From positions 3,410,001 through 3,474,000 of the forward strand of contig NC_073414.1 of the NCBI RefSeq assembly GCF_028641065.1: 64,000 bases of DNA, in the 5' to 3' direction. Positions within the stretch are counted from its first letter, which is position 1. The number at the start of each line of letters is the position of its first letter. The notes beneath the pieces were generated by a model. The model saw only the letters and a list, made by a program, of their open reading frames with translations. It was not told the origin of the DNA and searched no databases. The translations under genes and the position numbers were made by a program. This DNA comes from Leucoraja erinacea. Lineage: Eukaryota. Of this stretch, positions 6,510 to 64,000 are shown in pieces.

Positions 6510-7919
6510 CTCCAAAGACGGGCATGTCTGTAGGTTCATTGGCTTCTGTAAATTGTCCCTAGTGTGTAGGATCGATCTAGTGGACGGGTGACCATTGGTC
6601 CATGCAGACTCGATGGGCTGAAGGGCCTGTTGTCTCTAAACCAACTTAGATAGCATGCAGACAAAGCGTTTAACTATACATCACTTCACATAACACTATT
6701 ACTACAATACATGTTTGTGGGACTGTGCATGTTCCTTTAAATATGCACACAACCTTTAAATATGTTTTATCGTCTGCCAAACAGGTCGGTAAGTTGTGAA
6801 AAAGGTGAAAAACGTCTGGCTATGGAGATAGGTCCAGTGGGCAGAAATAGTGAGTTGTTCTTATAGAAAGCTAGAGCAGAAAAGATGGGCTGAATGGCCT
6901 CATTCTGTGTGGTGACCGATCTACTATTCAATAATATGATGCAAATCCCTCTCTTCCCGGGGAAAGCATTAATCCTGTACCCCTCCCCATTATTACCAAC
7001 TGCAACAAAAAAATCTATTAAAATATTGATTACTCCGCCAATTAAAGGGAATGATTTCTGACTCAAGGCCACTTTGACAGGTTATTAGCTGAATGTACAG
7101 AGAAGATTTATTGTAGAGATGGCAGCAGAAAGCACCCAGTCACTGAGTGCTTTGTCTTGGAATTCATCATCACCGACTTGGGATGAAGAATTAGGACAAA
7201 GGATGATGGAAAGAAAATGTCCATCTTGGACTTTAGACTTTTCGATACAACGCAGAAACAGGCCCTTCAGCTCACGGAGTCCGCGCCGACCAGTGATCCC
7301 CATAAACTAACACTATCCTATGCACTAGGGACAATTTACAATTGTTGCCGAAGCCAATTCATCTACAAACCTGCTGAAGAAAGAACTGCAGATGCTGGAA
7401 AAAATCAAATGTAGACAAAAATGCTGGAGAAACTCAGCGGGTGAGGCAGCATCCATGGAGAGAAGGAATAGGTGACGTTTCGGGTCGAGACCCTTCTTCA
7501 GACTGATGTGTGGGGTGGGGGCAGGGAAACACTTTGTCAGGCCAAAACTGGGGGGAATTATTCAGATGTCAAAATTTGCAGAGTTCCAGAATCCACGCCT
7601 CTACTTCCTCAGGTGGTTGAGGATACTCGACAGATCTCCAATGACTTTTACAACATTTCTACAGATCAGGTCAGGTCGGGGGGAGTTCCCCCAGCCACGG
7701 GTACCATGTAATCCCGTGCTACCTGCTCCATGGTCGGATAGTCGGCGACTAAACAGTCTCCCCCACCTGGTTTGCCAGGTGAGGAGGGGGCTGTGGACCC
7801 CCAGCAGGACCAAAAACAAGACCTGTCAAAGGGCGGATGAGCTCCTAGCGAACCAACGGCCATCCACACTTCAGTAGAAGTTGCGATCACTGTCGTACGT
7901 AACATTGTAAGGAATGATG

Positions 7920-7922
<3 letters not shown>

Positions 7923-7975
<53 letters not shown>
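7923..7975. repeat. (CA)n microsatellite
   Basis: Uninterrupted AC run; others at 35489-35513 (TG) and 51217-51263. Confidence 0.95.
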
Positions 7976-7976
<1 letters not shown>

Positions 7977-10900
7977 CCTATACTTCCAGCGGTGGAAGTC
8001 CGCAGGAACTGGAGGACAGAGATGTGTGGTGCGCCATCACAGTTCCCGTTGGAGATCAGCACCACTGCGTTGCTGATGTTTTCAACGATGATGAATGAAT
8101 GAATCTACTGTCAGGTTACATCACAGTTTGGTTTGGCAACTGCTCTGCCCAGGACTGCACGTTGGTCTTGGCATCATGTTTGGCACAGACATGGTGGGCC
8201 GAAGGGCCTGTTTTTAGTGCTGTGCTGGTCTATATTCAAAGTTCATAGAAAATCCCGATAGTTAGTTTGACTCGGCCTCAAGTGATATACTGGGTGTGAC
8301 CGGACTTCCGACAAGGCTCTGGACCAGTTTAGTCTATTGTCAAAGAAGTGTTCAAGAAGGAACTGCAGATGCTGGAAAATCGAAGGTAGAGAAAATTGCT
8401 GAAGAAACTCAGCGGGTATGGCAGCATCTATGGAGCGAAGGAAATAGGCAAAGTTTCGGGCCGAAACCCTTCTCCAGTCTGAAGAAGGTTTTCGGCCTGA
8501 AACGTTGCCTATTTCCTTCACTCCATAGATGCTGCCTCACCCGCTGAGTTTCTCCAGCAATTTTGTCTACCTTTTAGTTTATTGTCACGTGTACTAAGGC
8601 GTGTACGTGCATGCTATCCAGTCAGCGGAAAGACGACACGTGATTACAATCAAGCCATTGACAATGCTTTACGAATGTTCCTAATCACCTGAACATAATA
8701 CCACCTGACAGTTCCACACCAGCTCAACAATAAGCTTTTTTTTTAAAAAACCTGTCAATGGTGCCTTCTTTACTCAAATTAAAATTTGCACTAATCTTTT
8801 TAATCAAAAAATAAAACAAATCATTTAATGTTGCGGTTTTTCCAACTGGAAAAATATATAAATAAAAATAAAAATATATAACCTGCAAATCCTTCCTTCT
8901 TCAAAAGAACCCCGCTTGGGCAAGTTGGGCTGAAGGGCCTGTTTCTACACTGTATCACTCTGTTATAATGAACCACATGCTGTCCTTAGTTCCAATAAGA
9001 ATTTTTTGATCCTAAAAATAACCTGTCTACCCAAGACACTGATGTTCTAAGCCATAGAACACAGCCTCCCACGCCTTCCAGCAGCAGTATAATGCTTCCT
9101 GTCGTTTTAGCAGCAGAATTATATATTATACCAATATAGGGGTTAATGTTCCTGTCAATTCAAAATAGCCATAAACTATTTTAACACTGGCAAATCTATC
9201 AGTGATAGGGGAATATTAATAAAGGCTGCAAGCTGGGTTTGTGCCAAAGAACCACAGGAGGAGGTGGATCAACACCTGTTATTCGTCACTATGGCTTGTT
9301 CACAACCCCAGCGGGTAGCCCAGTGTCGCAGACAAAATGCATCCCCAAAGAAGGCAAAGGGGGAAGAGCAACTCACAGGTTCAGTGACACCGACAGAAAT
9401 GAGAGGAGACCAGTGGCGCAGTGGGTAGAGCAGGTGTTTCATAGCTCTGAGGAACCAGGTTCAATCCTGACCTCTGCCTGTGTGGAGTTTGCCTGTTCTC
9501 CCTGTGACCTGTTCTCCCCAAAGGTTGGTAGGTTAAATTAGGTTAGTGAGGGAAGTATACAAATACAATTGGATCAGTGTACATTGATGTGCTTGGTGAG
9601 TTGGTCCAGACTTGGATGGCCAAATGACCTGTTACCAAGCCTGTTTTAATGTGATAACTCTGTGCAGGCAAGAGAGAGTGTTATATCAACATTTAGGGGG
9701 AATATGGGGTGTGACTGAAGGCAGACTAGATGAAAGAAGATGGGGAGAGATAAAGGTAAAGGGGAACAGATGAGGAGGAAGGCAATTATGCACACAGTAT
9801 AGAGCTTTAGAATTATTATTTTTCATTTATTTAGCATTGAAATATTGAAGTAACCGTTACTGGAATCACAGCTTGTCAGCGCAAGGCTAAATGCAGAAAG
9901 AAAAATGTGTTAACCCTTTCAATTTCAGTCTTTTAATTAATTGGTCAAAATAAACCATCCAAATCAATAGCAACACATGGTAGCAGCATTTGTGGATGTG
10001 TGAAAACAAAATTTCGAAACAATTAAAAATAAATCCATTGGAAACCATTTTACTGGAGGTTATTTTTTTTTAATTTCGCCTTCTAAATCTTAATGTGGCA
10101 ACACAAACATTCTTGCTTATATTTAACATTAAAACGCAAATCCATTTATTATTATTTTTCTGAGAGTAAAATCAACCATAGAATTGGAGATTTTACCAAC
10201 TGCATTTTTCCCAATAGTATTATATTATATTATTTGGATTTTTTTAATGTTGTATAATCAGTCTCAAGGTCTAAAAAAAAAACACATCTAAAAAGATGAA
10301 AATCCCAGGTACGGTTTTAGCTTAAATATATGGGATAAACAATTCTGATATTTTCGCAGCAATTACTGTTGGAATATTCTTTTTTTAAGAGGAGCTTCGT
10401 CGCTGCTGATTTATCGAAGGCTACTGATTTATTAAACAGCTTTCTTTCTTGTTTTACTGCGTGTTTGTTTTCGGCTCCAGCCGAGGATGCTTTAGACAAT
10501 AGGCACAAGCATCAACAGCCTTGCATGGATTGCAAGCTGCGTCAACAGAATTACACAAGGCTCCTTCGAAAACAAGCATCGAACATCAAATACTACTGAC
10601 ACAGATTGTAATCTCTCTCGTTTTCTTCATTAACGTTAAGCCAGAAGAAGAAACGTCAATCGAAACAGTGTCAAAAACACCATTTTTGTTTAGAATGAAT
10701 GTATCAACTGCACCCTTTTCAACAGCGGATAACGCTGGAGTCACACTTGTTTCAATTTCATATTGATGTATTTTCGCCAATATTGCAACAAAGGAAATCA
10801 CAATGAAATGACATGTAGAAGATTTCAACCCTACCTCGCCTCGCTCTGTGCTGTTCTGCGTTGGTTACAAGTCCTTCAGTGTCTCCACCTACTCTCTCTC

Positions 10901-12720: not shown

Positions 12721-14892
12721 GATGCTACCTGGCCTGCTGAATTCTCCTGCATTTTGTGTCAATCTACATATGTATCTAAATATCTTAAATATTAATTGGC
12801 TTTTTGCTTCCTGAGAATCAGTGCACTCAGTCCCAAATTGCAGGAGTAAAGACGAGGGCGAGTTTTGACCTAAATAGGGGGAAAAAACATGGTTAGATGC
12901 CACTAAGTAGATGGCAATGCCTTAACCATTTGTGTGTTGTAAGGCCACTAGGGCCCCTTCCATCCTTATCAAGGGGAGTGCTAACCTTCTCTCCTTTCAT
13001 ACAACACACCATCTTCGATGGCACGAACCATATTTATAGTTCGCAAGCCAGACACATATTTGGGTACAGGTATGGTGTAAGATTGGTCTAACACTACGTT
13101 TTCAATCTCACCTATTTAACAGATATAACTTAGTAAAACATGACAATATTTTATATTGAGCATAAATTCCATTTTTCAAGGCATTTCAACAGCTAAGGTT
13201 TAATTATGCTAATCTAGCAGCGTTTCAGCCAGTTGCTATTCAGTGTGTGTTTTAGTTGCAAGGAAAACCTCAAAGACTGCTCAAATCCAAATGTACAAAG
13301 CCTGTGGTTTATACAGCGTAGCATAAAATGATCTGACTCGACCATGAGTTGAATTAAATGAAGTTTAACAGCAGAACCTCGCCTTGTCATGTGACTTCGA
13401 CCGACAGCGCTGTTTGCGCATGCTCAGCGCTGAGTGTAACAAAGTCGACAACAATAGCCACAAAATAGACACAACCAAAGATCCTATATCTTTGGACACA
13501 AAATGCTGGAGTAACTCAACGAGACAGGCAGCATCTCTGGAGAGAAGGAATGGGTGACGTTTCGGGTCGAGACCCTTCTTCAGAAGAAGTTACTCCAGTT
13601 TTTTGTGTCTATCTTCGGTTTAAACCAAATATACTAGAGGTTTCTAGCTCCTCTAGTATCTTTGGTTTAAACCAGCATCTGCAGTTCCTTCTTACACAAC
13701 AACAACAGCCCTCCTTGCTGCAAGCAGCAATGGAAAGCATATGTGGGGTCACACAGCGAAACAATTAACCGACTTTATCCCAATGCCTTGCTTCAGCTGC
13801 TATTTCCATTATGCATATTAGAGTCAAGAGTGTTTTATTGTTATATTTCCCAGAGAGAACAATGAAATTCTTACTTGCAGCACAACAAAATATTGATTTC
13901 TCTATAACTTCAAATAACTCCGACATTCCCTCTCTCTCCATCCCTCCCCTACCCAACATACAGCTAACAATGTATAGAAAGGAACTGCAGATGCTGGTTT
14001 AAACCGAAGATAGTCACAAAACGCTGGGGTCACTCCGCGGGACAGGAGCAACTCTGGAGAGAAGGAATGGGTGACGTCTCAGACTGAAGAAGGGTCTCAG
14101 CCATAAATGTCACCCATTCCTTCTTTCCAGAGATGCCGCCTGTCCCGCTGAGTTACTCCAGCATATTGTGTCAACCTGTTCCCAAACTAAGCTGTGATGC
14201 AGTATTCAAGGTTTCAAGGTCAGTTTATTGTCACATTTAAGCAGTTAAGGAAATTTGAGTTATCATGCAGCCACACTAAGTGAAAAACAAGTGACACAAC
14301 CACATAAAAGTGAACATAAACATCCTTCACAGTGGATTCCACATTCCTCACTGTGATGGAAGTCAAGTCAAGTCTAGTCAAGTCACTTTTCACATTGGCT
14401 TATTTCTAGTTAGATGTGGCCCTTGTGGCTAAGGGGATCAGGGGGTATGGAAAAGGCAGGTACGGGATACTCTTGGATGATCCCCAAGATGCTTTGAATG
14501 GCGGTGCAGGTCGAACGAATGGCCTACTCCTGCAAGGCATTTCTATGTTTCTATGTTTCTATTTCTATAGCACATTTAAAACAACTCTCGTTGTCTCTGT
14601 ACTGTACACTGACAATGACAATTAAAATTGAATCTGAATCGTTGACCAAAGTGCTTTACATTGGTGGAGGTACTAACGTTATACAGGGAAGGCAATACAG
14701 TTCAATCTTCTTCCTCTTGTTCAAGTACCACAACAGTGAGAGAACCTGAAACCCATTAAATAAGCTTGAGAGCAAGGGAAAACGTAAAAATAAAATTCCA
14801 TATGAATATTTATTTCAAATGTTCAGCAGAGGCTGGAGCAGGGATAGAACACTGACATTGGAGTTACTCCTCTAGTCCATTCATTGAAATCA

Positions 14893-15392: not shown

Positions 15393-18300
15393 GTGAGTGT
15401 TAAACCACCCACTCCTTCTCTCCAGAGATGCTGGAGTTACAGCAGTGCAGAGAAGGTTCACCAGACTGATTCCTGGGATGTCAGGACTGTCTTATGAAGA
15501 AAGACTGGATAGACTTGGTTTATACTCTCTAGAATTTAGAAGATTGAGAGGGGATCTTATAGAAACTTACAAAATTCTTAAGGGGTTGGACAGGCTAGAT
15601 GCAGGAAGATTGTTCCCGATGTTAGGGAAGTCCAGAACAAGGGGTCACAGCTTAAGGATAAGGGGGAAATCCTTTAAAACCGAGATGAGAAGAACTTTTT
15701 TCACGCAGAGAGTGGTGAATCTCTGGAACTCTCTGCCACAGAGGGTAGTTGAGGCCAGTTCATTGGCTATATTTAAGAGGGAGTTAGATGTGGCCCTTGT
15801 GGCTAAGGGGATCAGGGGGTATGGAGAGAAGGCAGGTACGGGATACTGAGTTGGATGATCAGCCATGATCATATTGAATGGCGGTGCAGGCTCGAAGGGC
15901 CGAATGGCCTACTCCTGCACCTATTTTCTATGTTTCTATGTTACTCCGGCATTTTGTGTGTGGGATGGGACCGGTCAGGGCGGTCTAGAGCAAAATGTAT
16001 TGGTCACATTCAAGCCAAGTCCCATTTATTTATACAGCACATTTAAAAAACAACTCTCGTTGGCCAAAGTGCTTTACATTTGTTATAAGAATAGCACAAC
16101 AAAACAGACTACATACATATATACATGTAACCCTCACTCAGACGACGTCAGGAAAGGTTTGGGAGTATAGATAAGTCTTTGGACTCTTGACTTAAAAGAG
16201 TCGATGGAGGGGGCAGTTCTGATGGGAAAGGGGATGCTGTTCCACAGTCTAGGGGCTGCAACCGCAAAGGCACGATCGGTTTAATGTTAAATGTCCCAGA
16301 TATATTCGTCCTTGCAACAGCACAACATTCAGTACACTGTAAACAATATAATAATGCATTTTGTTGTCTCTGTACTGTACACTGACAATGACAATTAAAA
16401 TTGAATCTGAATCTGAATAAACGAGAAGAAGAGGTAAAAAGTTCAGTGTATGCATATATGCAAGTATATATACATATGGTACACAAAAAAAGCTGGAGAA
16501 ACTCAGCGGGTGCAGTAGCATCTATGGAGCGAAGGAAATGGGCAACGTTTCGGGCCGAAACCCTTCTTCAGACATATATATACATAAGTATGTGTGCTGA
16601 GGTGGGATTGTGCAGGGTAGTTCATGAACCTGATAGTCAATGGGAGGAAACTGTTCTTGAACCTGGAGGTATCTTTTCTCAGGCTCCTGATAAATCATAT
16701 TCACCACTGCGTGGAGTTAACAAAATGCAAACAACATCTTAATATATATAAGTGTATATATACATATTCATAGACACACATGAAGAAGGGTCTCAACCTG
16801 AAACGTCACCCATTCCTTCTCCAGAGATGCTGCCTGTCCCGCTGATTTACTCCAGCTTTTTGTGTCTCATCTTCAGCCTAAGCGGACCGTTTTGTTACTG
16901 TTCGACTCCTCTCGGAGGCCACGACAAAACGGCAAAGCTCTGGAACCAAGAGTGCTGGAAAATTGATGGCGGTCCTATAACTTCGAAAAGCTGTCAATTC
17001 CAATTCTTGCTTCCCTCCACAGGTATAATCCTGAGAATCTGTCGACTTTAGAACGATACGTGGAGACTCAGGCCAGGGAGAATGCTTATGATCTGGAAGC
17101 CAATCTGGCGGTTCTTAAACTGTAAGTATATCTCTTGTTATCAATGGTCAATGATTTGAAGCATCCTCCCCAAGAAGCCACCTGTTGAATATTTTTCAAT
17201 CTTTGTGTTTTAGCACTAATTTCAGGTGTCTACAATATCATTCTTGTTGCATTAATCCATTTGCTGTCTTTTCCATGCAGGTATCAGTTCAATCCCGCTT
17301 TCTTCCAGTCAACCGTAACTGCACAAATCTTGCTGAAAGCCCTGACGAACCTTCCACACACAGACTTCACCCTCTGCAAATGTATGATCGACCAGACCCA
17401 TGTATCCTTACCCAAGAGGCAGCAATTATCGCTTATTCTAAGTAAACAACACCAAGATAGTGCAAAAACTAAAGTATGTAAAATAACTGCAGTAGGCTGG
17501 AGTGGCTGTGTGCTGAGGTGGGTTTGTGCAGGGTGATTCATGAACCTGACAGTCGATGGGAGGAAACTGTTCTTGAACCTAGATGTATCTATTTTCAGGA
17601 TCCTGATAAATCATATTTACCACTGTGTGGAGTTAATAATCTTCAGTTTCCTCCCACACTCCAAAGACGTACAGGTTTGTAGGTTAATTGGCTTGCTAAA
17701 TGTAAAATTTGTCCCCAGTGGGTGTAGGATAGTGTTAATGTGCGGGGATCGCTGGTCGGCGCAGACCCGGTGGGCCGAAGGGCCTGTTTTCGCGGTGTAT
17801 CTCTAAACTAAACTAAACTAAACCTAGAGCCCTGCTGAAAGTATGGAGACATAGGCTTCCTTAACCAAGCAAACACAGCAAGAGGAGCGGCCAATTCAAC
17901 AAATCCTGAATCTAGGTGACCTCTTGGAGACCTGCCACTTCCAAGACTTCTGGGTGAGTAAGATGTCTTTGGGTTTATTCACCTTTGAGATTCTCCTTTA
18001 GGCATGCTTGATAGTAGTTGTGTGAAACCTGGGAAGCCCTTACCTGGAGTGGCATTGCCTTCGATGACTTTGTGGAATTCAATTCGATGGACAAGCACAG
18101 GGCTTTGTGCTGTAGGTCTCCAGCAATTACATCCTTGCAGAATCATTGTTGCCTGACAGGCAGCATCTGTGGAGAGAGGAACTGAGTTAATGTTCAACGT
18201 TAATATTTCTTCATCAGAACTGGACGACTGTAACAACATTTCCTTATTTCAAACCCAAATCTCTGCAATAATATTATCAAATATTGCCATATTATCCATT

Positions 18301-23264: not shown

Positions 23265-23319
23265 TGGAAACACCAAGGCTTCTCAGTTTTGTGTTTGGAA
23301 GAAAATACTCATTATTGCT

Positions 23320-23330: not shown

Positions 23331-23899
23331 AACTTGCAAATGCATGCATCGTCTGATATAACAAAATTCACAAATGAAGAAACTGTTGGCGTCAAATAGT
23401 GTGGAAAACTTTCTTCATCTCTTGAATGACTTGTTTTTTGTAACTTGGTTTATTCTTTAAACAATCCTCTTGCTCATTGCTTGCTTGATTGTTATTTGTT
23501 GTGCTTCCGAACGCTTATCTCCTATCTCTGCCCTCTTTGGTGTCTCCTTTTTCAGATATTCCTTTAAGCACATGTCTTTGACCACCAGTGTGAGGAAGGA
23601 ACTACAGATGCTGGTTTATACCGAAGACGGGCACAAAATGCTGGAGTGACTCTGCAGGTCAGGCAGCATCAGTGGAGAAAAGGAATGGACAACGTTTTGA
23701 GTCGGAACCCATGCCGCAGTCTGAAGAAGGGTTCCAACCCAAAATGTCTTGTATTCCTGTTCTCCAGGAATGCTGCCAGACCCGCTGAGTTACTCCAGCA
23801 CCGTGTGTATGTCTTTGACCACTATCTTCATTGACTGGTAGAATCTGGAGCTCGTACGTTAATAAGTTATAGGAACAGAATTAGGCCATTCGGCCCCTT

Positions 23900-25813: not shown

Positions 25814-26044
25814 ATGTACCCTGTGCCCTGGAGCGGTGGCGACCGGAGGCCGGGATTCTACGGCAGCAGCTCGGTGCTGCTGAGAAACGCCAACGTTGTG
25901 CCCATTCCAGCTGGAGCTCCGAGTCCCGGGCCCGGACAAGGACTCTTTGAGGATCTGCACTTCCCTGCTGACAACTCCTCTCTGCATGGCCGCGGGCGTA
26001 CTGCTCGCTTCAACACTCTCATCTCAGGCTGGAAGAGGCCACAG
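25814..26044 (+). CDS. calpain exon 1
   Basis: MYPVPW...[14 protein letters not shown]...ISGWKRPQ; donor CAG|GTAAGT; start codon choice is inferred. Confidence 0.82.
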
Positions 26045-50000: not shown

Positions 50001-51800
50001 ACTGTGGTCAGTTGCAGTATGGTAGTTGGCTAGGGCACCAATGTTGGCTCAGGCACCATTAAGGTGAGAGGGGAAGATTTAATATGTACCTTAGGGCCAA
50101 CCTTTTCACTCAGATGGTGACGGGTATGTGGAACAAGTTGCCGTAGGAGGTAGTTGAGCCTGCTACTGACTGTACCAGCATTTAAAAAGACCGGTACGTG
50201 GATAGGAAAGGTTTTGAGAAATATGGGCAGGCTCCATATGAAATATGATCAGTCTGAAGAAGGTCTCGACTCAAACCGTCACCCATTCCTTCTCTCCAGA
50301 GATGCTGCCTGTCCCGCTGAGTTACTCCAGCTAACTATGTAGATGGGGCATGTTGGTTGGGATGGGCAAGATGGGCTGAAGGGCCTTTTCCATGCTGTAT
50401 GACTCAATTACTCCTTGACATCAGCACAAACTATACTCTCCTTCAGAGGATTACTGTGGGATACCTTGAATCCATCTGATTAGGACCATGAGTTTAGTTG
50501 TCATTTTGTTGGTAGGCAATGTCTGGGGAACGCACTTCCTTGTCTCTCCAGAGTAGTTCTGCCTCGATTCCCTGTCCTAAGCAAGGCACCAATTGACACA
50601 GGTAGACAAAATTACTGGAGAAAGGTTTTGGCCCGAAACGTTGCCTATTTCCTTCGCTCCATAGATGCTGCCACACCTGCTGAGTTTCTCCAGCACTTTT
50701 GTCTGCCTTCGATTTTGCAGCATCTGCAGTTCCTTCTTGACCAATTGACCTACAAATCTGTATGGCTTTGGAGTGTGGGAAGAAACCGGAGAAAACCCAC
50801 GCAGGTCACGGGGAGAAGGTACAAACTCTGTACAGGCAGCACCCGTAGTCGGGATTGAACCCGGGTCTCTGCCGCTGTGAGACAGTAACTCTACCGCTGC
50901 GACATCGTGTTGTTGCCATCGGCAGATTCCGGTCACTTGCCCTCTGCATGTTTTCAAATTATTTAAACAACCTTTACAAGGTTCACAAAGGAAAAAAGCT
51001 GAATTCCTGCACGTGGGAAGGTTCACGGGAGCTAACATTCCTGTTTACTTTTTTGCAACGTTCCCACAAGCTGGAATGTTGGAAAATCAGTGAGGAACTG
51101 GGGCGACTCGTCCCCTTTTCAGTTGGAATTTCAGCTACGCTGCGTAAGTCTGGCTTGCTGTCATAATTAGGTCCCCGTCATCTCGAGCAAGTGTCAATGT
51201 CACAGGAATCATTGCCACACAGACACACACACACGCACAACCACACACACGCACACACACACAGCCCCACNNNNNNNNNNNNNNNNNNNNNNNNNNNNNN
51301 NNNNNNNNNNNNNNNNNNNNNNNNNNNNNNNNNNNNNNNNNNNNNNNNNNNNNNNNNNNNNNNNNNNNNNNNNNNNNNNNNNNNNNNNNNNNNNNNNNNN
51401 NNNNNNNNNNNNNNNNNNNNNNNNNNNNNNNNNNNNNNNNNNNNNNNNNNNNNNNNNNNNNNNNNNNNNNNNNNNNNNNNNNNNNNNNNNNNNNNNNNNN
51501 NNNNNNNNNNNNNNNNNNNNNNNNNNNNNNNNNNNNNNNNNNNNNNNNNNNNNNNNNNNNNNNNNNNNNNNNNNNNNNNNNNNNNNNNNNNNNNNNNNNN
51601 NNNAGATGGGATGCCAGACATAGCTCGATGTTACGCCCTGTTCATTCTCATTGTTGCGTAAAGAAGGAATGTTTATCTCAGGCTGGAATGAAGGGTCAAG
51701 GACCAAAGTGCGAGATGCTGAGTTAGGAAATTAAGATGAGATAAAGGAGGAAATATCAGTTTTGTTGCTGCCAGTCTAAATATCTACAGCCTTGAGGGAA

Positions 51801-51832
<32 letters not shown>

Positions 51833-54800
51833 AGGGGTTGGTGGGGTAGGGAGATAAATAAGTCAGGTAGCAGGTTACAGTGCAGTGATGTCAGAAAGCC
51901 ATGTGATAGGAGCAGAATTAGGCCATTCGGCCCATCGTCAACTCCACCATTCGATCGTGGCTGATCTATCTGTCCATCCCACCCCCATTCTCTTGCTTTC
52001 TCCCCCACAACCTCTGACACCCGTACTAATCGCGTCCACTTCACGTTTTGGGAAGAAGGCTTTACGAACTTGACGGCTAACTTCTCAGCACAGTGGCGCC
52101 GCTGGAAGAGACGCTGCCCCACAGAGCCAGAGGCCCGAGTTCAATCCTTGCTCCGAATGCCGTCTGTGCGGAGATTGTCCACCCTCACTGTGATGGCTGC
52201 TCCGGTGTCCTCCCACATCCCAAAGACGTGCAGGTTTGTTGGTTAAATCGGCCCTCTGTCAATTGTCCCCTCGTGTGCAGGGAGTGGTTGAGAAAGTGGA
52301 ACAGCTTAGACTTAGTGTGAGATGATCGCTGGTCGGTACAGTGAGGAGAAGGGCCTGTTTCCAAGCTGCATCTTTCAATTCAATCAAGCTGCTCCCAGTT
52401 CTCCTTTATTACTGCTGTAAAACTCGGTCACAGATATTGCCCCTGTCCCACTTAGGAAACCTGAACGGAAACCTCTGGAGACTTTGCGTCCCACCCAAGG
52501 TTTCCGTGCGGTTCCCGGAGGTTGCAGGTGGTTGCCGGAGGTTGCAGGTAGTGGAAGCAGGTGGGGAGACTGACAAAAACCTCCGGGAACCGCACGGAAA
52601 CCTTGGGTGGGGCACAAAGTCTCCCGAGGTTTCCGTTCAGGTTTCCTAAGTGGGACAGGGGCATAAGGGCCTGTCCCACTTGGAGATTTTTTCGGCGACT
52701 GCCGGCGTCATTGACAGACGTATCAGAGTCGGCGAAAGATTTTGATCGTTTCAAAATCTAGCGGCGACAAAAATAATGTTGCGACACTCGAGGAGACACC
52801 GCGCGTCAATAACGTCATCACGCCGCGACTTTTTCGGTGCCCTGATAAGTCAGTCAATGATGCCGACAGTCGCCGAAAAAAATCACCATGTGGGACAAGC
52901 CCTTTACAATTCCTTTCAGATAGGATCCTGGATATGCAAGGAATGCAGTGATATGGATCACGTGCAGACAGAGGTAAGTTTAACTTGGCATCATGTTCAG
53001 CACGGACATTGTGGGCTGAAGGGCCTGTCCCTGTGCATGCCTACTCTATGTTTCATATCGCAGGTGGAAGATTCAGCAACAGATAGTCTGCTGGGTTGTT
53101 TCTCACCAAGTGCATTCTTTACATTTCTAACAATCTGTACATATTCATTCATGGCAATGGAATTTGCTTCTGTTCCAGGAGCTTTCAAAATCATGGACAA
53201 GTTTGGAACTGGAATGGTCAATGTTGGCTACAAAGAGGTAAGTGTTGGCACGCAAATACAAATAGAAAATGCTGGGGGTTGTCAGCAGCTCGGGCAGCAT
53301 CTGTGGAGAGAGAAACCAAGCTACTCTTTCAGGTTAGTTATAGAGGCTCCAATGCTGTGAGGGAGCAGATCGACAGTCACTCTACTGTGCCTCAAAGTTA
53401 GCTGTCGAGCAAGGAAACAGTCAATAGACAATAGGTGCAGGAGTAGGCCATTCGGCCCTTCGAGCTAGCACCGCCATTCAATGTGATCATGGCTGATCAC
53501 CCCCAATCAGTACCCCGTTCCTGCCTTCTCCCCATATCGTTTAAGAAGGAACTGCAGATGCTGGAAAATCGAAGGTAGACAAAAGTGCTGGAGAAACTCA
53601 GCGGGTGCGGCAGCATCTATGGAGCGAAGGAAATAGGCAACGTTTCAGCCTATTTCCTTCGCTCCATAGATGCTGCCGCACCCGCTGAGTTTCTCCAGCA
53701 CTTTTGTCTACCTTCGATTTTCCAGCTACCTTGATTCCACTATCTTTAAGATCTCTATCTAACTCCCTCTTGAAAGTATCCAGAGTACTGGCCTCCACCA
53801 CCCTCTGAGGCAGAGAATTCAACAGAATCACAACTCTCTGTTTGAAAAAGTATTTCCTCGTCTCCGTTCTAAATGGCTTGCCCCTTATTCTTAAACTGTG
53901 GCCCCTGGTTCTGGACTCCCCCAACATGGGGAACATGTTTCCAGCCTCTAGCGTGTCCAAAACCTTAGTAATGTTATGTTTCAATAAGATCCCTTCTCAG
54001 CCTGACTCATCCATGCCGACCAAGATGCCCCATCTACAATAGTCCCTCCTGCCTGCATTTGGCCCATATCCCTCTAAACCTTTGCCTATCCATGTACCAT
54101 GCATGTATGTGCTGCTGGGGGTGGTGATGGAGGCAGATATGATAGTGGCATTTCAGAAACTTATGGATAGGCACATGGGCATGCAGGGAATGAAGGAATA
54201 TGCATTATATGCAGGCAGATAAGAGTCTTGGCATCATGTTCGGCACAGACATAGTGGGCCGAAGGGCCTGTTCGTATGCTGTACTAAGTTTTATGTTCAA
54301 TGAGGGGGCCGTGAATGGTGCTTTAGATATCTTTGCCTTTTATTTGCATCTTTGATGAGGTGAATATGTAAATGTGATGAACGTCTGCCAAATGCAATCT
54401 CTGTGTGGGCATTTGCCGTGAATTACCATGAAGAATTACCATGTTTTAATCTGTACTAAAAACATTGTGGTGTATTGCGAAGTGGCTTTCATTCCCTGCA
54501 ACCTCTCCCTTTCTTAACACTCCCACCCCCACCCCCACGGTGGTTGCAGATGACTATGTCCAGCTAGGGTCCTGTGGACTAGAATGTGGAAGGAGATGAT
54601 GAGGAATTTATCTAGTCAGAGGGTGACGAATCTGTGGAACTCATTGGCACATGAGGCTGTGGAGGACACTGATGGATATTTTTAAGGCAGATACATAGAA
54701 ACATAGAAAATAGGTGCAGGAGGAGGCTATTCGGTCCTTCGAGCCAGCACCACCATTCATTGTGATCATGGCTGATCGTCCCCTATCAATAACCCGTGCC

Positions 54801-56228
54801 TGCCTTCTCCCCATATCCCTTGACTCCACTATCCCCTAGAGCTCTATCTAACTCTCTCTTAAATCCATCCAGTGACTTGGCCTCCACTGCCCTCTGTGGC
54901 AGGGAATTCCATAAATTCACAACTCGCTGGGTGAAAGTTTTTCATTGCCACAGAAGGCTGTGGAGGACACCAATGGATATTTTTAAGGCAGAGATAGATA
55001 GATTCTTGATTAGTACGGGTGTCGGGGGTCACGGGGAGAAGGCAGGAGAATGGAGTTAGAAGGGAGAGATAGATCAGCCATGATTGAATGGTGGTGTAGA
55101 CTTTATGGCCGAATGGCCTAATTCTGTTCCTATCCCTTATGAACTTACGAACATGAGATATTGCCTATAGATTAAAATAATTTCACTATTAGGAGCAGAC
55201 AGGGGCTTTGATTCAATCTAGGAAGCAATTAGAGTTAGGATAACACGACACAGTTAGATGTGGCCCTTGTGGCTAAAGGGTAAGACTTTGGTTAGGCTGC
55301 ATTTGGAGTACTGTGTGCACCTCTGCTTGTCCCATTATGTGGAGGCTTTGGAGAATGTTCAGTAGAGGTTTGCCAGAATACTGCTTGGATTAGAGGGTGT
55401 TAGCTATAAGGAGAGTTGACAGAGTCCTAGAGTGATACAGTGTGGAAACAGGCAATTCGGCCCAACTTGCCCACACCAGCCAACATGTCCCAGCTACACT
55501 AGTCCCACCTACCTGCATTTGGTCCATATCCCTCAAGACTCGTCCTATCCATGTACTTGTCTGTATCTTAAACGATGGGATAGTCCCAGCCTCAACTACC
55601 TCCTCCGGCAGCTTGTTCCATACACCCTTTGTGTGTAAAAGCTACCCATCAGATTCCTATTAAATCTTGTCCCCTTCACCTTAAACCTATGTCCTCTGGT
55701 CCTCGATTCACCTACTCTGGGCAAGAAACTCTGTGCATCTACCCGATCTATTTCTCTCATGATTTTGTACACCTCTATAAGATCACCCCTCATCCTCCGG
55801 CGCTGCAGGGAATAGAGTCCCATCCTACTCAACCTCTCCCTATAGCTCAGATCCAGTAGTCCCGGCAACATTGTTGTAAATCTTCTCTGTACCTTTTCCA
55901 GCTTGACATCTTAAGTAAGTGAGTTTAAGTAAGTAAGTAAATTTATTGGCCATGTATTCACATACAAGGAATTTGCCTTGGTGCTCTGCCCACAAGTAAC
56001 AACATGACAATTACGAATGCCTCAGAAAACACTAAACATTAATAATAATAAAACATTAATGATAAAACACCATTGATCAAGTATGTGATAACATGCCTAT
56101 AACATGGAGAAAATTTGATTTTTTTTTTCTCTTAAAAGTAGGAGGGTGATGGGATTTTTTTTCATTGAATGTAACCTCGCTCTTTCTTAACTCCCATGCA
56201 GTGGCTGCAGATGACTATGTACAGCTAG
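25814..56228 (+). CDS. CAPN12: Classical calpain catalytic subunit, CAPN12-like; 20 visible coding exons, 2097 nt, ~698 aa (CysPc, CBSW/C2-like and penta-EF-hand domains)
   Basis: Motifs [11 protein letters not shown] (Cys), GHAYS (His), RNPWG (Asn), [16 protein letters not shown]-hand [13 protein letters not shown]-terminal EWLQMTMYS*; exon sizes 70/119/134/169/86/65/69/79/117/59 match the classical calpain pattern. Calpain identity is secure; the CAPN12 symbol rests on linkage to EIF3K and needs a phylogeny. Confidence 0.75.
27405..27474 (+). CDS. calpain exon 2
   Basis: [23 protein letters not shown]; 70 nt. Confidence 0.95.
27770..28075 (-). mobile_element. CR1-clade LINE 3' fragment
   Basis: (CAATAGA)n tail on the plus strand and CR1 3' UTR. 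Confidence 0.8.
28081..28370 (-). mobile_element. Vingi/Ingi-like non-LTR retrotransposon RT fragment
   Basis: [18 protein letters not shown] and [14 protein letters not shown]...[12 protein letters not shown]...GIAPPPIR motifs; clade assigned from memory of these motifs. Confidence 0.6.
28405..28523 (+). CDS. calpain exon 3 (catalytic Cys)
   Basis: [40 protein letters not shown]; 119 nt. Confidence 0.95.
28635..29300 (-). mobile_element. Nested CR1-clade LINE fragments
   Basis: ORF 28702..29190: [14 protein letters not shown]...[14 protein letters not shown]. Confidence 0.85.
30108..30241 (+). CDS. calpain exon 4
   Basis: [45 protein letters not shown]; 134 nt, AAG acceptor. Confidence 0.95.
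30583..30794. mobile_element. hAT-Charlie-like MITE
   Basis: TIRs CAAGGGTTCCCAA / TTGGGAACCCCTG, 8 bp TSD ACCTAAGT / AGCTAAGT. Confidence 0.8.
31382..31550 (+). CDS. calpain exon 5
   Basis: [28 protein letters not shown]...GSIICCAKP; 169 nt. Confidence 0.93.
31908..32268 (-). mobile_element. CR1-clade LINE 3' fragment
   Basis: [14 protein letters not shown]; (CAATAGA)n tail. Confidence 0.82.
32420..32491 (+). CDS. calpain exon 6 (catalytic His)
   Basis: [24 protein letters not shown]. Confidence 0.93.
32674..33275 (-). mobile_element. Rex1/Babar-like LINE 3' fragment
   Basis: [42 protein letters not shown]; (GAATCT)n tail; second copy at 59830-60130 (+). Confidence 0.8.
34163..34248 (+). 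CDS. calpain exon 7 (catalytic Asn)
   Basis: [28 protein letters not shown]; 86 nt. Confidence 0.95.
34901..34972 (+). CDS. calpain exon 8
   Basis: [24 protein letters not shown]. Confidence 0.93.
35558..35724 (+). CDS. calpain exon 9
   Basis: [17 protein letters not shown]...[18 protein letters not shown]; AAG acceptor. Confidence 0.92.
35908..36080 (+). CDS. calpain exon 10
   Basis: [40 protein letters not shown]...IGFDVFQ. Confidence 0.94.
36090..37110 (+). repeat. C-rich degenerate minisatellite / low-complexity tract spanning an assembly gap
   Basis: Recurrent CTCTCCTCAAACGCCACCTACCCCCTACCCATGCCTCCACCTCCC units. Confidence 0.85.
36453..36598. other. Assembly gap
   Basis: N run. Confidence 1.
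37121..37465 (+). mobile_element. CR1-clade LINE 3' fragment
   Basis: [15 protein letters not shown]...[10 protein letters not shown]; octamer tail. Confidence 0.88.
37573..37781 (+). CDS. calpain exon 11
   Basis: [13 protein letters not shown]...[38 protein letters not shown]. Confidence 0.92.
38500..38539 (+). CDS. calpain exon 12 (linker, GC donor)
   Basis: TAG acceptor after a pyrimidine tract, [13 protein letters not shown], donor CAG|GCAAGT; bridges phase 2 to phase 0 as required. Confidence 0.75.
39033..39110 (+). CDS. calpain exon 13
   Basis: [26 protein letters not shown]; CAG/GTGAGT. Confidence 0.85.
40016..40076 (+). CDS. calpain exon 14 (EF1)
   Basis: [20 protein letters not shown]. 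Confidence 0.92.
40170..40234 (+). CDS. calpain exon 15
   Basis: [21 protein letters not shown]; 65 nt; donor GTATCCTTC. Confidence 0.92.
40287..40596 (-). mobile_element. V-SINE (HE1-like) inside the calpain U12 intron
   Basis: Reverse complement of the same head, V-domain and tail. Confidence 0.85.
40872..41805 (+). repeat. Minisatellite, 14 copies of a 66 bp unit derived from the Penelope terminal repeat
   Basis: Unit GAAACGTCACCTATCCATGTTCTCCACAGATGCTGCCTGACCCGCTGAGTTACTCCAGCACTCTGT at an exact 66 nt period. Confidence 0.95.
42111..42179 (+). CDS. calpain exon 16
   Basis: [23 protein letters not shown]; 69 nt. Confidence 0.92.
42412..42724 (-). mobile_element. V-SINE (HE1-like)
   Basis: Reverse complement of the same head, V-domain and tail. 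Confidence 0.85.
42919..42997 (+). CDS. calpain exon 17, copy a (EF3)
   Basis: [26 protein letters not shown]; 79 nt. Confidence 0.88.
43707..43823 (+). CDS. calpain exon 18, copy a
   Basis: [38 protein letters not shown]; 117 nt. Confidence 0.88.
44011..44393. mobile_element. Unclassified MITE with ~33 bp imperfect TIRs and an internal hairpin (duplicated at ~45836-46215)
   Basis: CAAAGATCCTACAGCGAGCAAGATCGTCCACTC ... GAGTGGTCTATCTTGCTCCGCTAAAAGATCTTTG. Confidence 0.65.
44910..44988 (+). CDS. calpain exon 17, duplicate copy b
   Basis: Reads identical to 42919..42997 with intact splice sites; lies in a tandem duplication. Confidence 0.6.
45532..45648 (+). CDS. calpain exon 18, duplicate copy b
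   Basis: Reads identical to 43707..43823 with intact splice sites. Confidence 0.6.
48089..48385 (-). mobile_element. CR1-clade LINE 3' fragment
   Basis: CATAGAAA tail and same 3' UTR as other copies. Confidence 0.85.
49350..49690 (+). mobile_element. Penelope-like element 3' end with hammerhead-like core at 49561-49588
   Basis: [22 protein letters not shown] remnant followed by CTGAAGA-AGGGTCTCGACCC-GAAACGTC and the common terminal sequence. Confidence 0.8.
49561..49588 (+). ncRNA. Minimal type I hammerhead ribozyme core (PLE-associated)
   Basis: CUGAAGA, stem II GGGU(CUCG)ACCC, GAAA, palindromic ACGU, GUC cleavage triplet; identical cores on the minus strand at 7474-7501, 13556-13583, 63827-63854; activity untested. 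Confidence 0.65.
51271..51603. other. Assembly gap
   Basis: N run after a CA repeat. Confidence 1.
52438..52903. mobile_element. Two adjacent PIF/Harbinger-like MITEs (52438-52663 with ~80 bp TIRs; 52666-52903)
   Basis: CCTGTCCCACTT ... GTGGGACA termini; TAA/TTA-type flanks. Confidence 0.72.
53179..53237 (+). CDS. calpain exon 19
   Basis: [19 protein letters not shown]; 59 nt; CAG/GTAAGT. Confidence 0.92.
53422..54000 (-). mobile_element. CR1-clade LINE fragment interrupted by a Penelope-derived fold-back
   Basis: [17 protein letters not shown]; insertion at ~53539-53726. Confidence 0.8.
54490..54580 (+). pseudogene. Decayed duplicate of the calpain terminal exon and its acceptor region
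   Basis: TGGTTGCAGATGACTATGTCCAGCTAG (WLQMTMSS*) at 54541-54567; flanks resemble 56161-56245; acceptor reads CGG instead of CAG. Confidence 0.75.
55620..55910 (-). mobile_element. CR1-clade LINE RT fragment (different subfamily)
   Basis: LSYRERL...[15 protein letters not shown]...[10 protein letters not shown]. Confidence 0.82.
56202..56228 (+). CDS. calpain terminal exon (coding part)
   Basis: CAG acceptor then WLQMTMYS* (typical calpain C-terminus). Confidence 0.9.
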   Translation, partial: WLQMTMYS

Positions 56229-58112: not shown

Positions 58113-58118
58113 AATAAA
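58113..58118 (+). terminator. Candidate calpain polyadenylation signal
   Basis: AATAAA after an AU-rich non-repetitive stretch and followed by a GU/U-rich tract; other AATAAA-like sites occur earlier, so uncertain. Confidence 0.35.
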
Positions 58119-60745: not shown

Positions 60746-60769
60746 TAAGACAACTTGTTCTGTTTGATG

Positions 60770-61055
60770 GTACACAAAATTGCTGGAGAAACTCAGCGGG
60801 TGCAGCAGCATCTATGGAGCGAAGAAAATAGGCGACGTTTCGGGCTGAAACCCTTCTTCAGACTGATGGGGGGTGGGAGGGGAGAAGGAAGGAAAAAGGG
60901 GAGGAGGAGGAGCCCGAGGGCAGGGGGATGGGAGGAGACAGCTCGAGGGTTAAAGAAGGGGAGGAGACAGCAAGGGCTAGCAAAATTGGGAGAATTCAAC
61001 ATTCATGCCATCAGGATGCAAGCTGCCCAGGCAGAATATGAGGTGCTGTTCCTCC
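60770..61055 (-). mobile_element. Penelope-like element 3' end
   Basis: EEQHLIFCLGSLHPDGMNVEFS remnant plus terminal repeat with hammerhead-like core. Confidence 0.75.
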
Positions 61056-61824
61056 GTTTGATCTGTTCCTCTGTTTGTGCACGCCAGGTTGATTGCATTC
61101 GTCGAAACAGGGCGGGCCACGTGAAGGTTGCAATCTCCCACACTTGGACTGGTACATGGACAGGAAAGGTTGAGAGGGATATGGGCCAAAGCTAGCAAAT
61201 GAGACTAGTTTGGATGGGGCATCTCGGTCAGCGTGGACAGGTTGGGTCAAAGGGCCTGTTTCTATGCTGTATGACTCTATGAATCCATGAGAAAGCTGCT
61301 GGGGAATTTTTGAAATCACAACTGATTCAGTGAAATCCTTCAAGAAAATGAACCTGGCACTTCTACCCAGCCTGATGCTCCACGTGACTCTAATCCTGCT
61401 CCACTGTTTGAGTTTAATGCCCTCTGATTTGGCCTACTAAGCTACTCAGTTGTAAAAGAATAAAAACAATATTGGCACGAAGCAAGAAGTGCCTCTGTTC
61501 CCCTGCGGGATCGAACGTCCTGCACTCAGAGTAGGACTGCCAGCTTCGGCTGCACCCCAAGGGCAAATAAAAATTTAATACGACCTACAATTTATTTTCA
61601 CGTGGCTTACTTCAGTTGGGGGGGTCGGGGACTTCATGGAGGAATCTGGCAGAATTGTGCCTTCCTCTCACACGGGCTGACATCGCTCCGCACCAACGCA
61701 GCAGAATGAGTGCATTGAAACCAGAACAATTAGTTGAATGCCTGTTGACCTGTGAATGACACAGAAATGTACTGCAGCATTCAGTACAACCACTCCCCTG
61801 AGTGTTGGTAAGGGATAATTTTAA

Positions 61825-62447
61825 AGCACCAAAGGATTTGAGTATAAGAGCAGAGAGGTTCTACTGCAGTTGGACAGGGTCTTGGTGAGACCACACCTGG
61901 AGTATTGCGTACAGTTTTGGTCTCCAAATCTGAGGAAAGACATTCTTGCCATAGAGGGAGTACAGAGAAGGTTCACCAGACTGATTCCTGGGATGGCAGG
62001 ACTTTCATATGAAGAAAGACTGGATAGACTCGGGCTTGTACTCACTAGAATTTAGAAGATTGAGGGGGGATCTTATAGAAACTTACAAAATTCTTCAGGC
62101 TAGATGCAGGAAGATTGTTCCCGATGTTGGGGAAGTCCAGAACAAGGGGTCACAGTTTAAGGATAAGGGGGAAGTCTTTTAGGACCGAGATGAGAAAAAT
62201 TATATTTCACACAGAGAGTGGTGAATCTGTGGAATTCTCTGCCACAGAAAGTAGTTGAGGCCAGTTCATTGGCTATATTTAAGAGGGAGTTAGGTGTGGC
62301 CCTTGTGGCTAAGGGGATCGGGGGGTATGGAGTGAAGGCAGGTACAGGATACTGAGTTGGATGATCAGCCATGGTCATTTTGAATGGCGGTGCAGGCTCA
62401 AAGGGCCGAATGGCCTACTCCTGCACCTATTTTGTATGTTTCTATGT
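61825..62447 (+). mobile_element. CR1-clade LINE 3' fragment
   Basis: [36 protein letters not shown]; tail. Confidence 0.9.
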
Positions 62448-64000
62448 TCCTGTTACCCAGATCACCTTCAGACAACCTTCTCCTCCCTCTACCTAATAAT
62501 TATCCTTCAAGATGTCCATTCTTCATTACAACAAGCCAACTACCATGAGGAACTGAAGTATGCCCTGCCCTGATTTCTGGATGCTGAACTGCCGCGGACT
62601 GATTCAGGGACTAAGCTCCTACTTTCGAACAGCATGAGGAATATTTCTACCTTAGAAACGGGGAACTGCAGATGCTGGTTTACAACAAAAAGGCACAAAA
62701 GTGCTGAAGTAACTCAGCAGGTCAGACAGTATCCCCGGAAAACATGGATAGGTGACATTTCGGGTCCCAAATCAAAATCTATCCGTTCTACAGGGATGCT
62801 GCCTGACCTGCTGAGTTACTTCATCACTGTCTGTCTGTTTCTTCGAAATATATCTTATAGCTTGAGATATCCCATCCCCAATCTTGGCACATCTACCAAG
62901 CCTTTCCACTTGTCACTTTAATTTCATGTTTCATGTATTTTGTTTTTTTTTATTACTGTTGGCAGATCAATCTCTCTCCTGGGATAAATAAAATCCTATC
63001 ATATCGTATCATACCATAATTGCTGCATTCAGGATCAAATTCCAAATACATTCTGGAGTAAGCCACCCTGACACCATAAAAGAATTCCAAGACAAATCCT
63101 TCCCAACATTTTCCTTGCTTAAGAAGACATTTGGACAAAGATATCTGGAAACTACTACCAATGTTGAAGTGTTACTGGTGTGTAATTTGCAATTAGTTCC
63201 AGCTTGTACATATTAATCTGTCTTAATGCAGGCTTAAAGTAACACAGACCAGGATTTGTTATGCTAAATATTTGACTTAACATGTAGTGTAACATTTCTG
63301 CTGTTGAGAGTAACACCAAATGAGCTCCCAACGCACTGTTTATTACACCTGATGCTGTGACCGCTCTCCTCACCACAAATGTTCCAATCGCTGGCACATT
63401 CTGTTACTCCACCATTCATTCATGGCTATCTCTGCCAACTAATCTCATTTGATGCTGTGGGAGACTAAAAATGCTGGAGAAACTCAGCAGGTAAGGCAGC
63501 ATCTATGGAGCGAAGGAAATAGGCGACGTTTCGGGTTGGGATCCTTCGCTACCAACTAATCTCATTTTCCCGCCTTCTCCCCTTTTCCTGCCTTATCTTG
63601 ATAAATTGTAAATGTTTAAGAAGGGAGACAAAAAATTAGGCCATTCTGCCCATCGAGTCTACTCCACCATTCATTCATGGCTGATCTCTGCCAACTAATC
63701 TCATTTTCCTGCCTTCTCCCCTTTTCCTGCCTTATCTTGATAAATTATAAATGTTTAAGAAGGGAGACTAAAAATGCTGGAGAAACTCAGCGGGTGAGGC
63801 AGCATCTATGGAGCGAAGGAATAGGTGACGTTTCGGGTCGAGACCCTTCTTCAGACTTTTTTCAGACTTCTTCTTTCGTGTGGCGTGCACAGCCTAAAGT
63901 TGTAGGATAACTTGTTCTATTTGATCTTCTGTTTGTGCACATGGTCCACCAACACCGCTGCGCTGGTCAAGAAGGCATAGCAATGACTGTTCTTCCTGAG

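Follow-up and report, generated by a model that had tools for sequence, protein, structure and literature searches.

Minimal type I hammerhead ribozymes (min-HHRs) have been described in the pseudo-LTRs (pLTRs) of metazoan Penelope-like elements (PLEs) (Cervera and De la Pena, 2014, PMC4209133), and the motif that recurs in the 64,000-nucleotide stretch of Leucoraja erinacea DNA analyzed here (the window) is of the same kind. Its stem II has 4–5 bp and its stem I 2 bp, compared with 7–8 and 4–5 bp in the Schistosoma consensus of that study and 2 bp in D. virilis; by extrapolation the skate carries ~60,000–90,000 descriptor-grade motifs, against the ~4,000 reported for coelacanth and ~9,000 for Xenopus with differing descriptors. 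With the Neptune-clade EN+ PLEs, as they are presented in PMC8557442 and PMC3846280, the skate element shares a reverse transcriptase (RT), a CX4CxxC linker, a C-terminal GIY-YIG domain and 5' truncation, together with partial tandems, an inverted 5'-truncated copy, a 30–40 bp tail confined to one end, inverted joints with palindromes, solo pLTRs and an Inr-like pLTR motif. It is unlike them in its extreme excess of copies of 95–130 bp whose 5' boundary is fixed and in its long Pro-rich N-terminal region. The anole Poseidon element PAc (Frangieh et al, 2024, PMC11167929) is similar in having two internal RT start sites that bracket the tail, in the cutting and extension of both strands on an uncut RNA template, and in the absence of RNA ends at the hammerhead site from the experiments described there. 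However, PAc belongs to another clade and its ORF starts inside the hammerhead, whereas the skate ORF starts ~35 nt after the tail; its start sites showed no strand preference in vitro, whereas the two ends of one skate insertion use different sites in most cases. Non-LTR retrozymes (PMC7229834; bioRxiv 10.64898/2026.07.22.740005) likewise have a type I hammerhead, PLE kinship and noncoding short copies, but they are described as tandem units, each with a mostly canonical hammerhead, that are processed to circles, whereas the skate copies are dispersed or inverted, their hammerhead is minimal and their tandem arrays contain no ribozyme. Publications already describe minimal hammerheads, tails and inverted ends, and the family is ordinary in kind: the skate adds one more genome to a known arrangement, and the family stands out in that it covers ~6% of the sampled DNA. 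The literature searched, with Repbase and Dfam outside its scope, gave no account of the skate family or of run-off copies, and the supplements of PMC4209133 (fish motif alignments) and of the bioRxiv study may list the family.

We propose, with a probability of about 0.7, that the repeat is a Neptune-type pLTR with a minimal hammerhead and that most of its short copies are run-off cDNAs of an uncut RNA 5' end and not a ribozyme-driven family. In the window, 78 matches to the family profile were found (main features in Table 1). Among the 74 that were scored, C3 was reached in 29, both boxes were present in 9, and 6 combined the boxes with the helix III palindrome, a 4-bp stem II and a 2-bp stem I. 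All four cores that the first-pass annotation had called intact (beginning at 49561, 7474, 13556 and 63827) match exactly, with CTGAAGAAGGGTCTCGACCCGAAACGTC as their reading. Its eight variants divide evenly: the cores at 8479 (+), 16544 (-), 29884 (-) and 60834 (-) retain CUGANGA and GAAA, and those at 31219, 40851 and 50254 (G12>A) and at 49072 (G8>A) are broken. The AGGT/ACCT pairing at 40847-40882, which it had singled out as a good stem I, instead marks where an inverted pair is joined, and the core there is one of the broken ones. An Rfam search of the window (E<=5) listed no hammerhead family; its miRNA matches were rejected, as they coincide with inverted pairs.

Table 1. Repeat copies, element remnants and the host gene in the window.
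Feature	Coordinates	Strand	Details
Longer GIY-YIG remnant, same PLE	2184..2444	-	77% to young ORF
pLTR copy with part of UTR	7377..7526	-	intact core 7474-7501, long tail
Head-to-head pair	8349..8573	.	long arm 8349-8482 (-), short arm 8475-8573 (+) with core 8479-8506 (both boxes, stem II weakened)
Short pLTR copy	13495..13584	-	core 13556-13583: both boxes, stem I 5' strand missing; short end
Head-to-head pair, long + short	13976..14177	.	cores cut or broken
Short pLTR copy	16476..16573	-	intact core 16544-16571 (GUU); flanking duplication 12 bp, TA-rich
Head-to-head pair, short + long	22713..22889	.	joint at stem II palindrome; 15-bp target duplication; without CUGANGA
Head-to-head pair	23595..23813	.	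flank shared over 14 bp; broken cores
Host calpain gene, start approximate	25900..56228	+	extent taken from translated motifs
Calpain exons	near 25946, 30138, 32459, 34202, 34959, 35925, 37741, 43748/45573, 53179-53237, 56202
GIY-YIG remnant + UTR + pLTR	29332..29712	-	remnant 29626-29712; first box broken
Short pLTR copy	29783..29915	-	intact core 29884-29911 (GUU), long tail; antisense in calpain intron
Short copy	31218..31310	+	broken core, G12>A
Head-to-head pair	40772..40937	.	+ arm core at 40851 broken, G12>A
66-bp minisatellite, 13.7 copies	40872..41776	+	derived from pLTR downstream of stem II; lacks CUGANGA, therefore no ribozyme
Short copy	49070..49155	+	broken core, G8>A
5'-truncated PLE end	49356..49690	+	GIY-YIG C-terminal remnant 49356-49430, pyrimidine-rich 3' UTR, intact core 49561-49588 (GUC), long tail
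Short copy	50248..50331	+	broken core: stem II deletion, G12>A
Head-to-head pair	53539..53720	.	cut inside core
5'-truncated PLE end	60756..61060	-	GIY-YIG remnant 60983-61060, UTR, core 60834-60861 (GUC), short 3' end
Short pLTR copy	63759..63857	-	start at AGT before core; intact core 63827-63854; short end

Judged by its sequence, the repeat is the pLTR of an abundant autonomous Neptune-type PLE, and the Penelope origin suggested earlier is borne out by its identity with the pLTR of young elements that encode RT and GIY-YIG. These elements carry RT, a Zn-finger linker and, at the C-terminal end, GIY-YIG in a single ORF; ORFs with YIDD, the CX4CxxC linker and IYIGET are open for up to 1193 codons, and N-terminal RT stretches are 96–98% identical. 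The GIY-YIG domain was found by Pfam in 4/4 cases, with E-values (3e-4 to 2e-3) that do not reach the curated cut-off, and relatives carry PF00078 and PF01541. The linker CNRKRCNTC of two loci (L091, L092) fits the CX2-5CxxC definition of the Zn-finger linker between RT and EN, which PMC8557442 gives for Neptune as shared with Nematis; no tree separated the two clades here. The order endonuclease, UTR, repeat was seen in 21/23 aligned loci (6/23 were excluded from the family profile), and in three partial tandems (L153, L154, L160) the repeat and tail are followed by a common 5' sequence with an ATG ~35 nt on. Both GIY-YIG remnants reported beside the repeat in the window, in the truncated PLE ends at 49356 (+) and 60756 (-), are present as stated, and there are two more (beginning at 2184 and 29626, both on the minus strand). 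Pfam on five window fragments gave Calpain_III as its sole match, in one of the five.

The family is very numerous, as had been claimed: 511 copies were counted per 1.0 Mb of sampled DNA, after removal of 40 of 551 profile matches in which the element body was missing, which extrapolates to ~1.1 million in the 2.19-Gb genome. The profile gave no matches on reversed DNA. A family-independent minimal-hammerhead descriptor matched 43 times in 1.0 Mb of real DNA, always within the family, and 0, 0, 0, 1 and 0 times in five Markov controls. The motif has CUGANGA, GAAA, NUH, the extra nucleotide at 9/10.1, G10.1-C11.1 and a palindromic helix III, in agreement with its earlier description as a minimal type I hammerhead in which an ACGU palindrome replaces helix III. 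Many copies are inactive, also as foreseen: boxes and helix III are retained in 68/511 and the full hammerhead in 33/511. Preferential conservation of the core was confirmed, with polymorphism in 0/10 non-CpG core columns and 0/6 stem II columns compared with 18/55 flank columns (0/16 versus 18/55, Fisher p=0.005; this p-value and the one below are optimistic, as the copies are mutually related); variation is concentrated in loop II, which is polymorphic. Some flank blocks match the core in conservation. Stem covariation is weak, being limited to one-sided U-A to U-G changes (II.4 in 32/239, I.1 in 48/220); double changes in stem II number 5, 2, 6 and 3 or fewer among ~235 copies, and no compensatory covariation was seen among them.

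The fixed ends of the copies likely record the element's copying route. Short-copy 5' ends pile up at TCAGT, three bases before the core: of 288 breakpoints (exact mapping left out one array locus and gapped copies), 79 lie at columns 161–165 and 62 extend further up. Solo copies (n=99) drop to background across columns 163 to 160 (values around the boundary: T.79, G.69, A.58, C.35, T.38), with the steepest drop between A162 and C161, while UTR-linked copies (n=67) stay at.82–.90 over the same columns. The cleavage site (column 193) has 3 breakpoints against a mean of 4.2; six apparent starts there came from profile boundaries and were gone with exact mapping, and a start peak at column 185 was discarded because 23 of its 26 starts come from one array locus. 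Ordinary truncation also acts, given that 158/511 copies begin inside the core (columns 166–188; 23 of these are one array) and others further down. The 3' ends are bimodal, near columns 260 and 290, with copies of ~95 and ~130 nt. Inverted pairs are head-to-head in 83 cases and tail-to-tail in 7, and only 2/166 arms of the short pairs start above column 150. After removal of 19/83 head-to-head pairs with an unclassified tail, 48 of 64 joined a long to a short arm (expected 31.5, p=2e-5), as did 7/7 in the window; the exceptions are 12 short-short (L157 looks short-short) and 4 long-long pairs.

Target duplications of at least 7 bp flank 16/44 solo copies (shuffled 1.3) and 25/46 pairs (shuffled 2.1). 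The arms of pairs agree at 371/448 diagnostic sites compared with 52% when shuffled, and of the 7/62 pairs with discordant arms, as two templates would give, only 1 has a target duplication. Six kilobase-long inverted insertions have duplications of 13–15 bp, four of them exactly 15, which overlap the element ends by a few bases. In alignments of RNA to the tandem junction (two runs from single cells, one from poly(A) RNA, and a contig set), there was no pile-up of molecule starts or ends; 82–96% of the raw reads continue into unlike sequence, the species may differ and caps are not visible in such data.

Run-off copying would proceed as follows. Transcription would start at the A of the initiator-like TCAGT, as the DNA ends suggest, and the element protein would nick both target strands ~15 bp apart. 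Reverse transcription would then be primed inside the RNA at two tail sites, as the anole element has been shown to do in vitro (PMC11167929). Synthesis primed in the first pLTR would run off at the RNA 5' end and leave solo or head-to-head short copies, and synthesis primed in a later pLTR would give longer copies that also contain UTR, endonuclease and RT. Selection would act on the hammerhead in master elements, its cleavage there being probably slow, dimeric and assisted by protein; scattered genomic copies would decay neutrally, with CpG loss of G12, and are predicted to cut no host RNA. A fuller version, which we put forward tentatively, is that the roughly one million insertions record the PLE mechanism at base resolution: a capped mRNA beginning at TCA(+1)GT would have the hammerhead as its initial 31 nt, a dimeric RT-endonuclease would cut with a 15-bp stagger and prime both target ends on uncut RNA, one per tail site, priming in the first pLTR would give strong-stop-like copies (solo and inverted pLTRs), and any cleavage would remove the cap and not make monomers. 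The value of the family would lie in being a natural data set on PLE integration and on the purpose of the hammerhead, where fixed 5' ends, two 3' ends, long + short pairing and 15-bp duplications give sharp predictions for the published in vitro system.

Short copies could instead be a SINE-like derivative that propagates itself, transcribed from an internal Pol II promoter of the pLTR and moved in trans by PLE protein with no ribozyme cleavage. Short copies do exceed endonuclease-linked ones ~tenfold and show target duplications of their own, an internal promoter with Inr and DPE is reported for D. virilis (PMC2377424), and pLTRs are described as sufficient for mobilization in trans in a rotifer (PMC3846280). 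In addition, among 40 sampled copies of subfamily C, 6 are UTR-linked and 0 endonuclease-linked, although the profile may miss a divergent endonuclease. However, all five sequence classes include UTR-linked members, no subfamily consists of short copies alone, short copies have the same long and short ends as the long elements, and PMC11167929 reports that the anole protein needs sequence from the ORF 5' part, located downstream of the pLTR; solo copies lack such sequence. We consider such a derivative improbable. A tRNA-headed SINE was rejected, as only background composition lies upstream of solo copies.

The 5' boundary might also reflect RT stalling at the ribozyme structure, or a splice boundary (a polypyrimidine tract and CAG precede the core), with the pairs formed when a single cDNA folds back and primes itself. 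An intron that ends at helix I is reported for D. virilis (PMC4209133), self-priming at palindromes was proposed earlier (PMC3846280), and fold-back would predict long + short pairs with identical arms as well. Near-perfect fold-back joints were found in 14/83 pairs, 5 of them at the stem II palindrome, but the other 69 are not clean fold-backs. The position of the steepest drop is not after CAG, spliced-like joints were found in 0 of 171 sequences, a structural stall would be expected at the 3' side of the helices, and in young insertions the target duplication overlaps the element at either end. This explanation has little chance of being correct. Slighter still is the chance of the retrozyme-like family put forward in the first-pass annotation, in which hammerheads would cut multimers into monomers or circles for re-insertion and intronic copies could cut host pre-mRNA: the motif does match a minimal hammerhead and is selectively conserved, 66-bp tandem arrays are present and retrozymes are reported as PLE derivatives, including in one cartilaginous fish (bioRxiv 10.64898/2026.07.22.740005), but those arrays lack CUGANGA, tandem units each with a complete hammerhead were not found in 1.0 Mb of 2.19 Gb (rare arrays may lie elsewhere), two core regions occur in 1/46 direct neighbors (one core broken), 6/97 boxed cores have a same-strand boxed neighbor within 1 kb, no ends lie at the cleavage site, all subfamilies include copies that extend up into the PLE 3' UTR, and the repeat is the pLTR of intact young elements.

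Folding also speaks against the retrozyme-like reading. Nearest-neighbor calculations disfavor the active hammerhead fold, with -6 to -7 kcal/mol for the double hammerhead against -21 to -29 kcal/mol for the best dimer fold, and for minimal hammerheads PMC4209133 reports no monomer cleavage and low dimer cleavage (dimer cleavage was studied by Lunse et al., as cited in the review PMC6765202). Cutting of calpain pre-mRNA by several sense intronic cores, as had been suggested, is unlikely on this modeling: the gene has only one intact sense core, at 49561, with no intact sense partner. This argues against treating such intronic motifs as cutters of host RNA. The PLE end that contains this core lies in sense orientation within a calpain intron, and the gene holds 14 sense and 15 antisense copies, the array not counted.

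Judged by its sequence context, the repeat is the pseudo-LTR (pLTR) of a Penelope-like element (PLE), since in 21/23 aligned loci the ORF stop codon leads into a UTR rich in pyrimidines and, beyond it, the repeat, and in three partial tandems the tail passes into one common sequence whose ATG lies about 35 nt further on. This order bears out the Penelope origin proposed in the first-pass annotation. The ORFs contain DKG, YIDD, a CX4CxxC linker and IYIGET, their nearest named protein relatives come from sharks and rays, and their layout agrees with that of Neptune or Nematis elements (PMC8557442). Genome-wide, the endonuclease fragment from the window returned 96,303 first-look candidates and an RT fragment 11,569; an N-terminal RT fragment gave 3,487 candidates, many of them 96–98% identical, with frames open for 750–1,190 codons. 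At three loci (L151:4475-5900, L152, L153), a Pro-rich, internally repetitive N-terminal region of ~500 residues precedes the RT motifs. Over the endonuclease end and UTR (L153:5716-5900), single-cell reads favour one strand by ~4- to 20-fold, a bias whose meaning depends on mate orientation.

Copies were counted with a profile derived from 17 ends linked to the endonuclease. The sample was 100 segments of 10 kb each, placed at round coordinates along contigs C1-C40 rather than in proportion to contig size; it yielded 511 copies with element body, and the reversed DNA none; all 551 matches together make up 5.8% of the sampled DNA. For a genome of 2.19 Gb, the unweighted sampling gives an estimate of ~1.1 million copies (0.9–1.3 million by hand from per-stretch counts). 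Median divergence from the majority sequence is 8% (n = 265). C3 is reached by 257/511 copies, both catalytic boxes (CUGANGA and GAAA) are kept in 97/511 and all tests are passed by 33/511, the most frequent lesion being decay of CpG sites at C11.1-G12 and within the ACGU palindrome. The window itself holds 78 matches, and in 6 of its 74 scored copies the boxes, stem II, the helix III palindrome and a stem I of 2 bp all survive.

In the core, CUGAAGA and one additional A lead into stem II, which reads GGGU/ACCC or GGGU/GCCC and is closed by a 4-nt loop; GAAA and then ACGU, which lacks loop 3, complete the core. Among copies with both boxes, the cleavage triplet is GUC in 50/97 and GUU in 21/97; stem I has two pairs (U-A or U-G, G-C), with a third position paired in 8%. 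This matches the minimal hammerhead consensus (PMC4209133), and the proposed type I identity stands. All four intact cores listed earlier are exact in the sequence, and at 49.4 and 61.0 kb endonuclease remnants do lie upstream of the repeat; the eight listed variants are all present, with a catalytic box broken in four. An Rfam search of the window gave no match for the hammerhead motif. A family-blind descriptor found 43 motifs in 1.0 Mb, all 43 inside the pLTR family (five Markov controls, ≤1). A common second allele is found in 0/16 core and stem II columns but in 18/55 in the flanks; in loop II, both columns outside CpG have one. As core and stem II columns lack such alleles while flank and loop II carry them, the anticipated conservation of the core points to selection in master elements, a reading tempered by the non-independence of copies, by one downstream block that is equally conserved and by the lack of clear compensatory changes. 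Folding of six copies in silico, with tertiary contacts and protein left out, gave probabilities of ≤0.19 for stem II and ≤0.01 for stem I because the purine-rich core pairs with pyrimidines downstream; on the same terms, the double hammerhead reaches −6 to −7 kcal/mol vs −21 to −29 for the best dimer fold. The anole motif is described as cleaving only with protein present (PMC11167929).

In solo copies (lone short copies), homology is lost within TCAGT, in the step from A162 to C161 that lies three bases ahead of the core; copies running up into the PLE 3' UTR keep it across this point. Exact mapping of 288 breakpoints placed 79 at profile columns 161-165, 62 further upstream and 20 at the stem II palindrome, with no pile-up at the cleavage site (3 vs a mean of 4.2). 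We take TCAGT to resemble a Pol II initiator. An Inr-like TCACT is reported for a rotifer pLTR (PMC3846280), and an internal promoter with Inr plus DPE for D. virilis (PMC2377424). The 3' ends form two modes separated by 30 nt, a spacing corresponding to the PLE tail.

Neighbouring inverted copies lie head-to-head in 83 cases and tail-to-tail in 7. A long copy (with tail) is joined to a short one in 48/64 classifiable pairs vs 31.5 expected, in 7/7 within the window, and in 9/9 under a stricter filter demanding an 11–22 bp duplication, which overlooked some known cases. Because target duplications in solos and in pairs far exceed shuffled expectation and the arms of pairs carry the same subfamily letters, each solo and each pair is, on sequence evidence, one insertion. 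Six multi-kilobase inverted insertions show 13–15 bp duplications that run a few bases into the element ends; a seventh (L157) is apparently short-short.

We infer that the mRNA begins at TCAGT, placing a pLTR at its extreme 5' end. RNA reads, in which neither starts nor ends accumulate at any site, carry no information on the transcript's ends. Priming within it would give run-off cDNA of 95 or 130 nt, which could join the far target end (solo copy) or a second cDNA primed at the other nick (inverted pair), and priming in a downstream pLTR would give longer copies. In the anole system (PMC11167929), both target strands are cut and extended, and reverse transcription starts inside uncut template RNA at two sites flanking the tail. 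Inverted pairs might instead arise by fold-back of one cDNA; we favour twin priming because both ends overlap the duplication and 69/83 joints are not clean fold-backs. The literature already describes minimal hammerheads in PLE pLTRs and their spread as truncated remnants, along with inverted ends, tails on one side and palindromes at junctions (PMC4209133, PMC3846280, PMC8557442), so the skate family is a known kind of element and its mechanism a lead, of value for PLE integration (run-off copies, twin priming) if confirmed. Our literature search, repeat databases being outside it, found no account of this skate family or of run-off copies.

The suggestion that the short copies form a retrozyme-like family, retrozymes being tandem units with a hammerhead in each (PMC7229834; bioRxiv 10.64898/2026.07.22.740005), is not supported in the DNA sampled: both partners have core regions in 1/46 direct neighbours, one core being broken, the window's 66-bp array lacks the first box, and every subfamily class includes UTR-linked copies, albeit with no endonuclease-linked member in class C. 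This 66-bp pLTR unit has expanded to minisatellites at several unlinked loci (window 40872-41776; L020:7611-8067; L150), each without that box.

Several sense cores had been placed in the introns of the presumed calpain gene. Sense copies are present (14 vs 15 antisense, array excluded), but only one intact core is sense (49561); another is antisense (29888). Cutting of the pre-mRNA is unlikely given the lack of an intact sense partner, the 2-bp stem I and the unfavourable predicted fold. The tail region (columns 225-275, e.g. window 49615-49675 +) has a CTGAC/CTCAC that we take to resemble a branch point, together with a pyrimidine tract and CAG, and may act as a cryptic 3' splice site where a copy lies sense in an intron. 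A tandem duplication of ~1.8-2.0 kb at ~42900-46700, inside the gene, is either real or an assembly artefact. If the first intron of the putative CLIP3 gene extends as far as 7478 (−), the intact core there would lie sense to that gene. Numerous 3' ends of a presumed CR1-like LINE, bearing short tandem tails, make up the window's other dominant repeat.

Other features of the window
Feature	Position	Strand	Basis
U6atac minor spliceosomal snRNA gene	12881-13007	-	Rfam 133.8 bits
Exons, presumably CLIP3	~10-5700	-	DPNDPAC and ankyrin exons
Gene, presumably calpain	~25.9 to 56.2 kb	+	translated motifs
Two EF-hand exons, duplicated in calpain tandem	43748/45573; 42910/44901		
pLTR copy, duplicated in calpain tandem	43381/45206		
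CR1-like LINE 3' ends	2860-3630, 15500-15940, 24000-24280, 37120-37400, 58000-58310, 62100-62450, others
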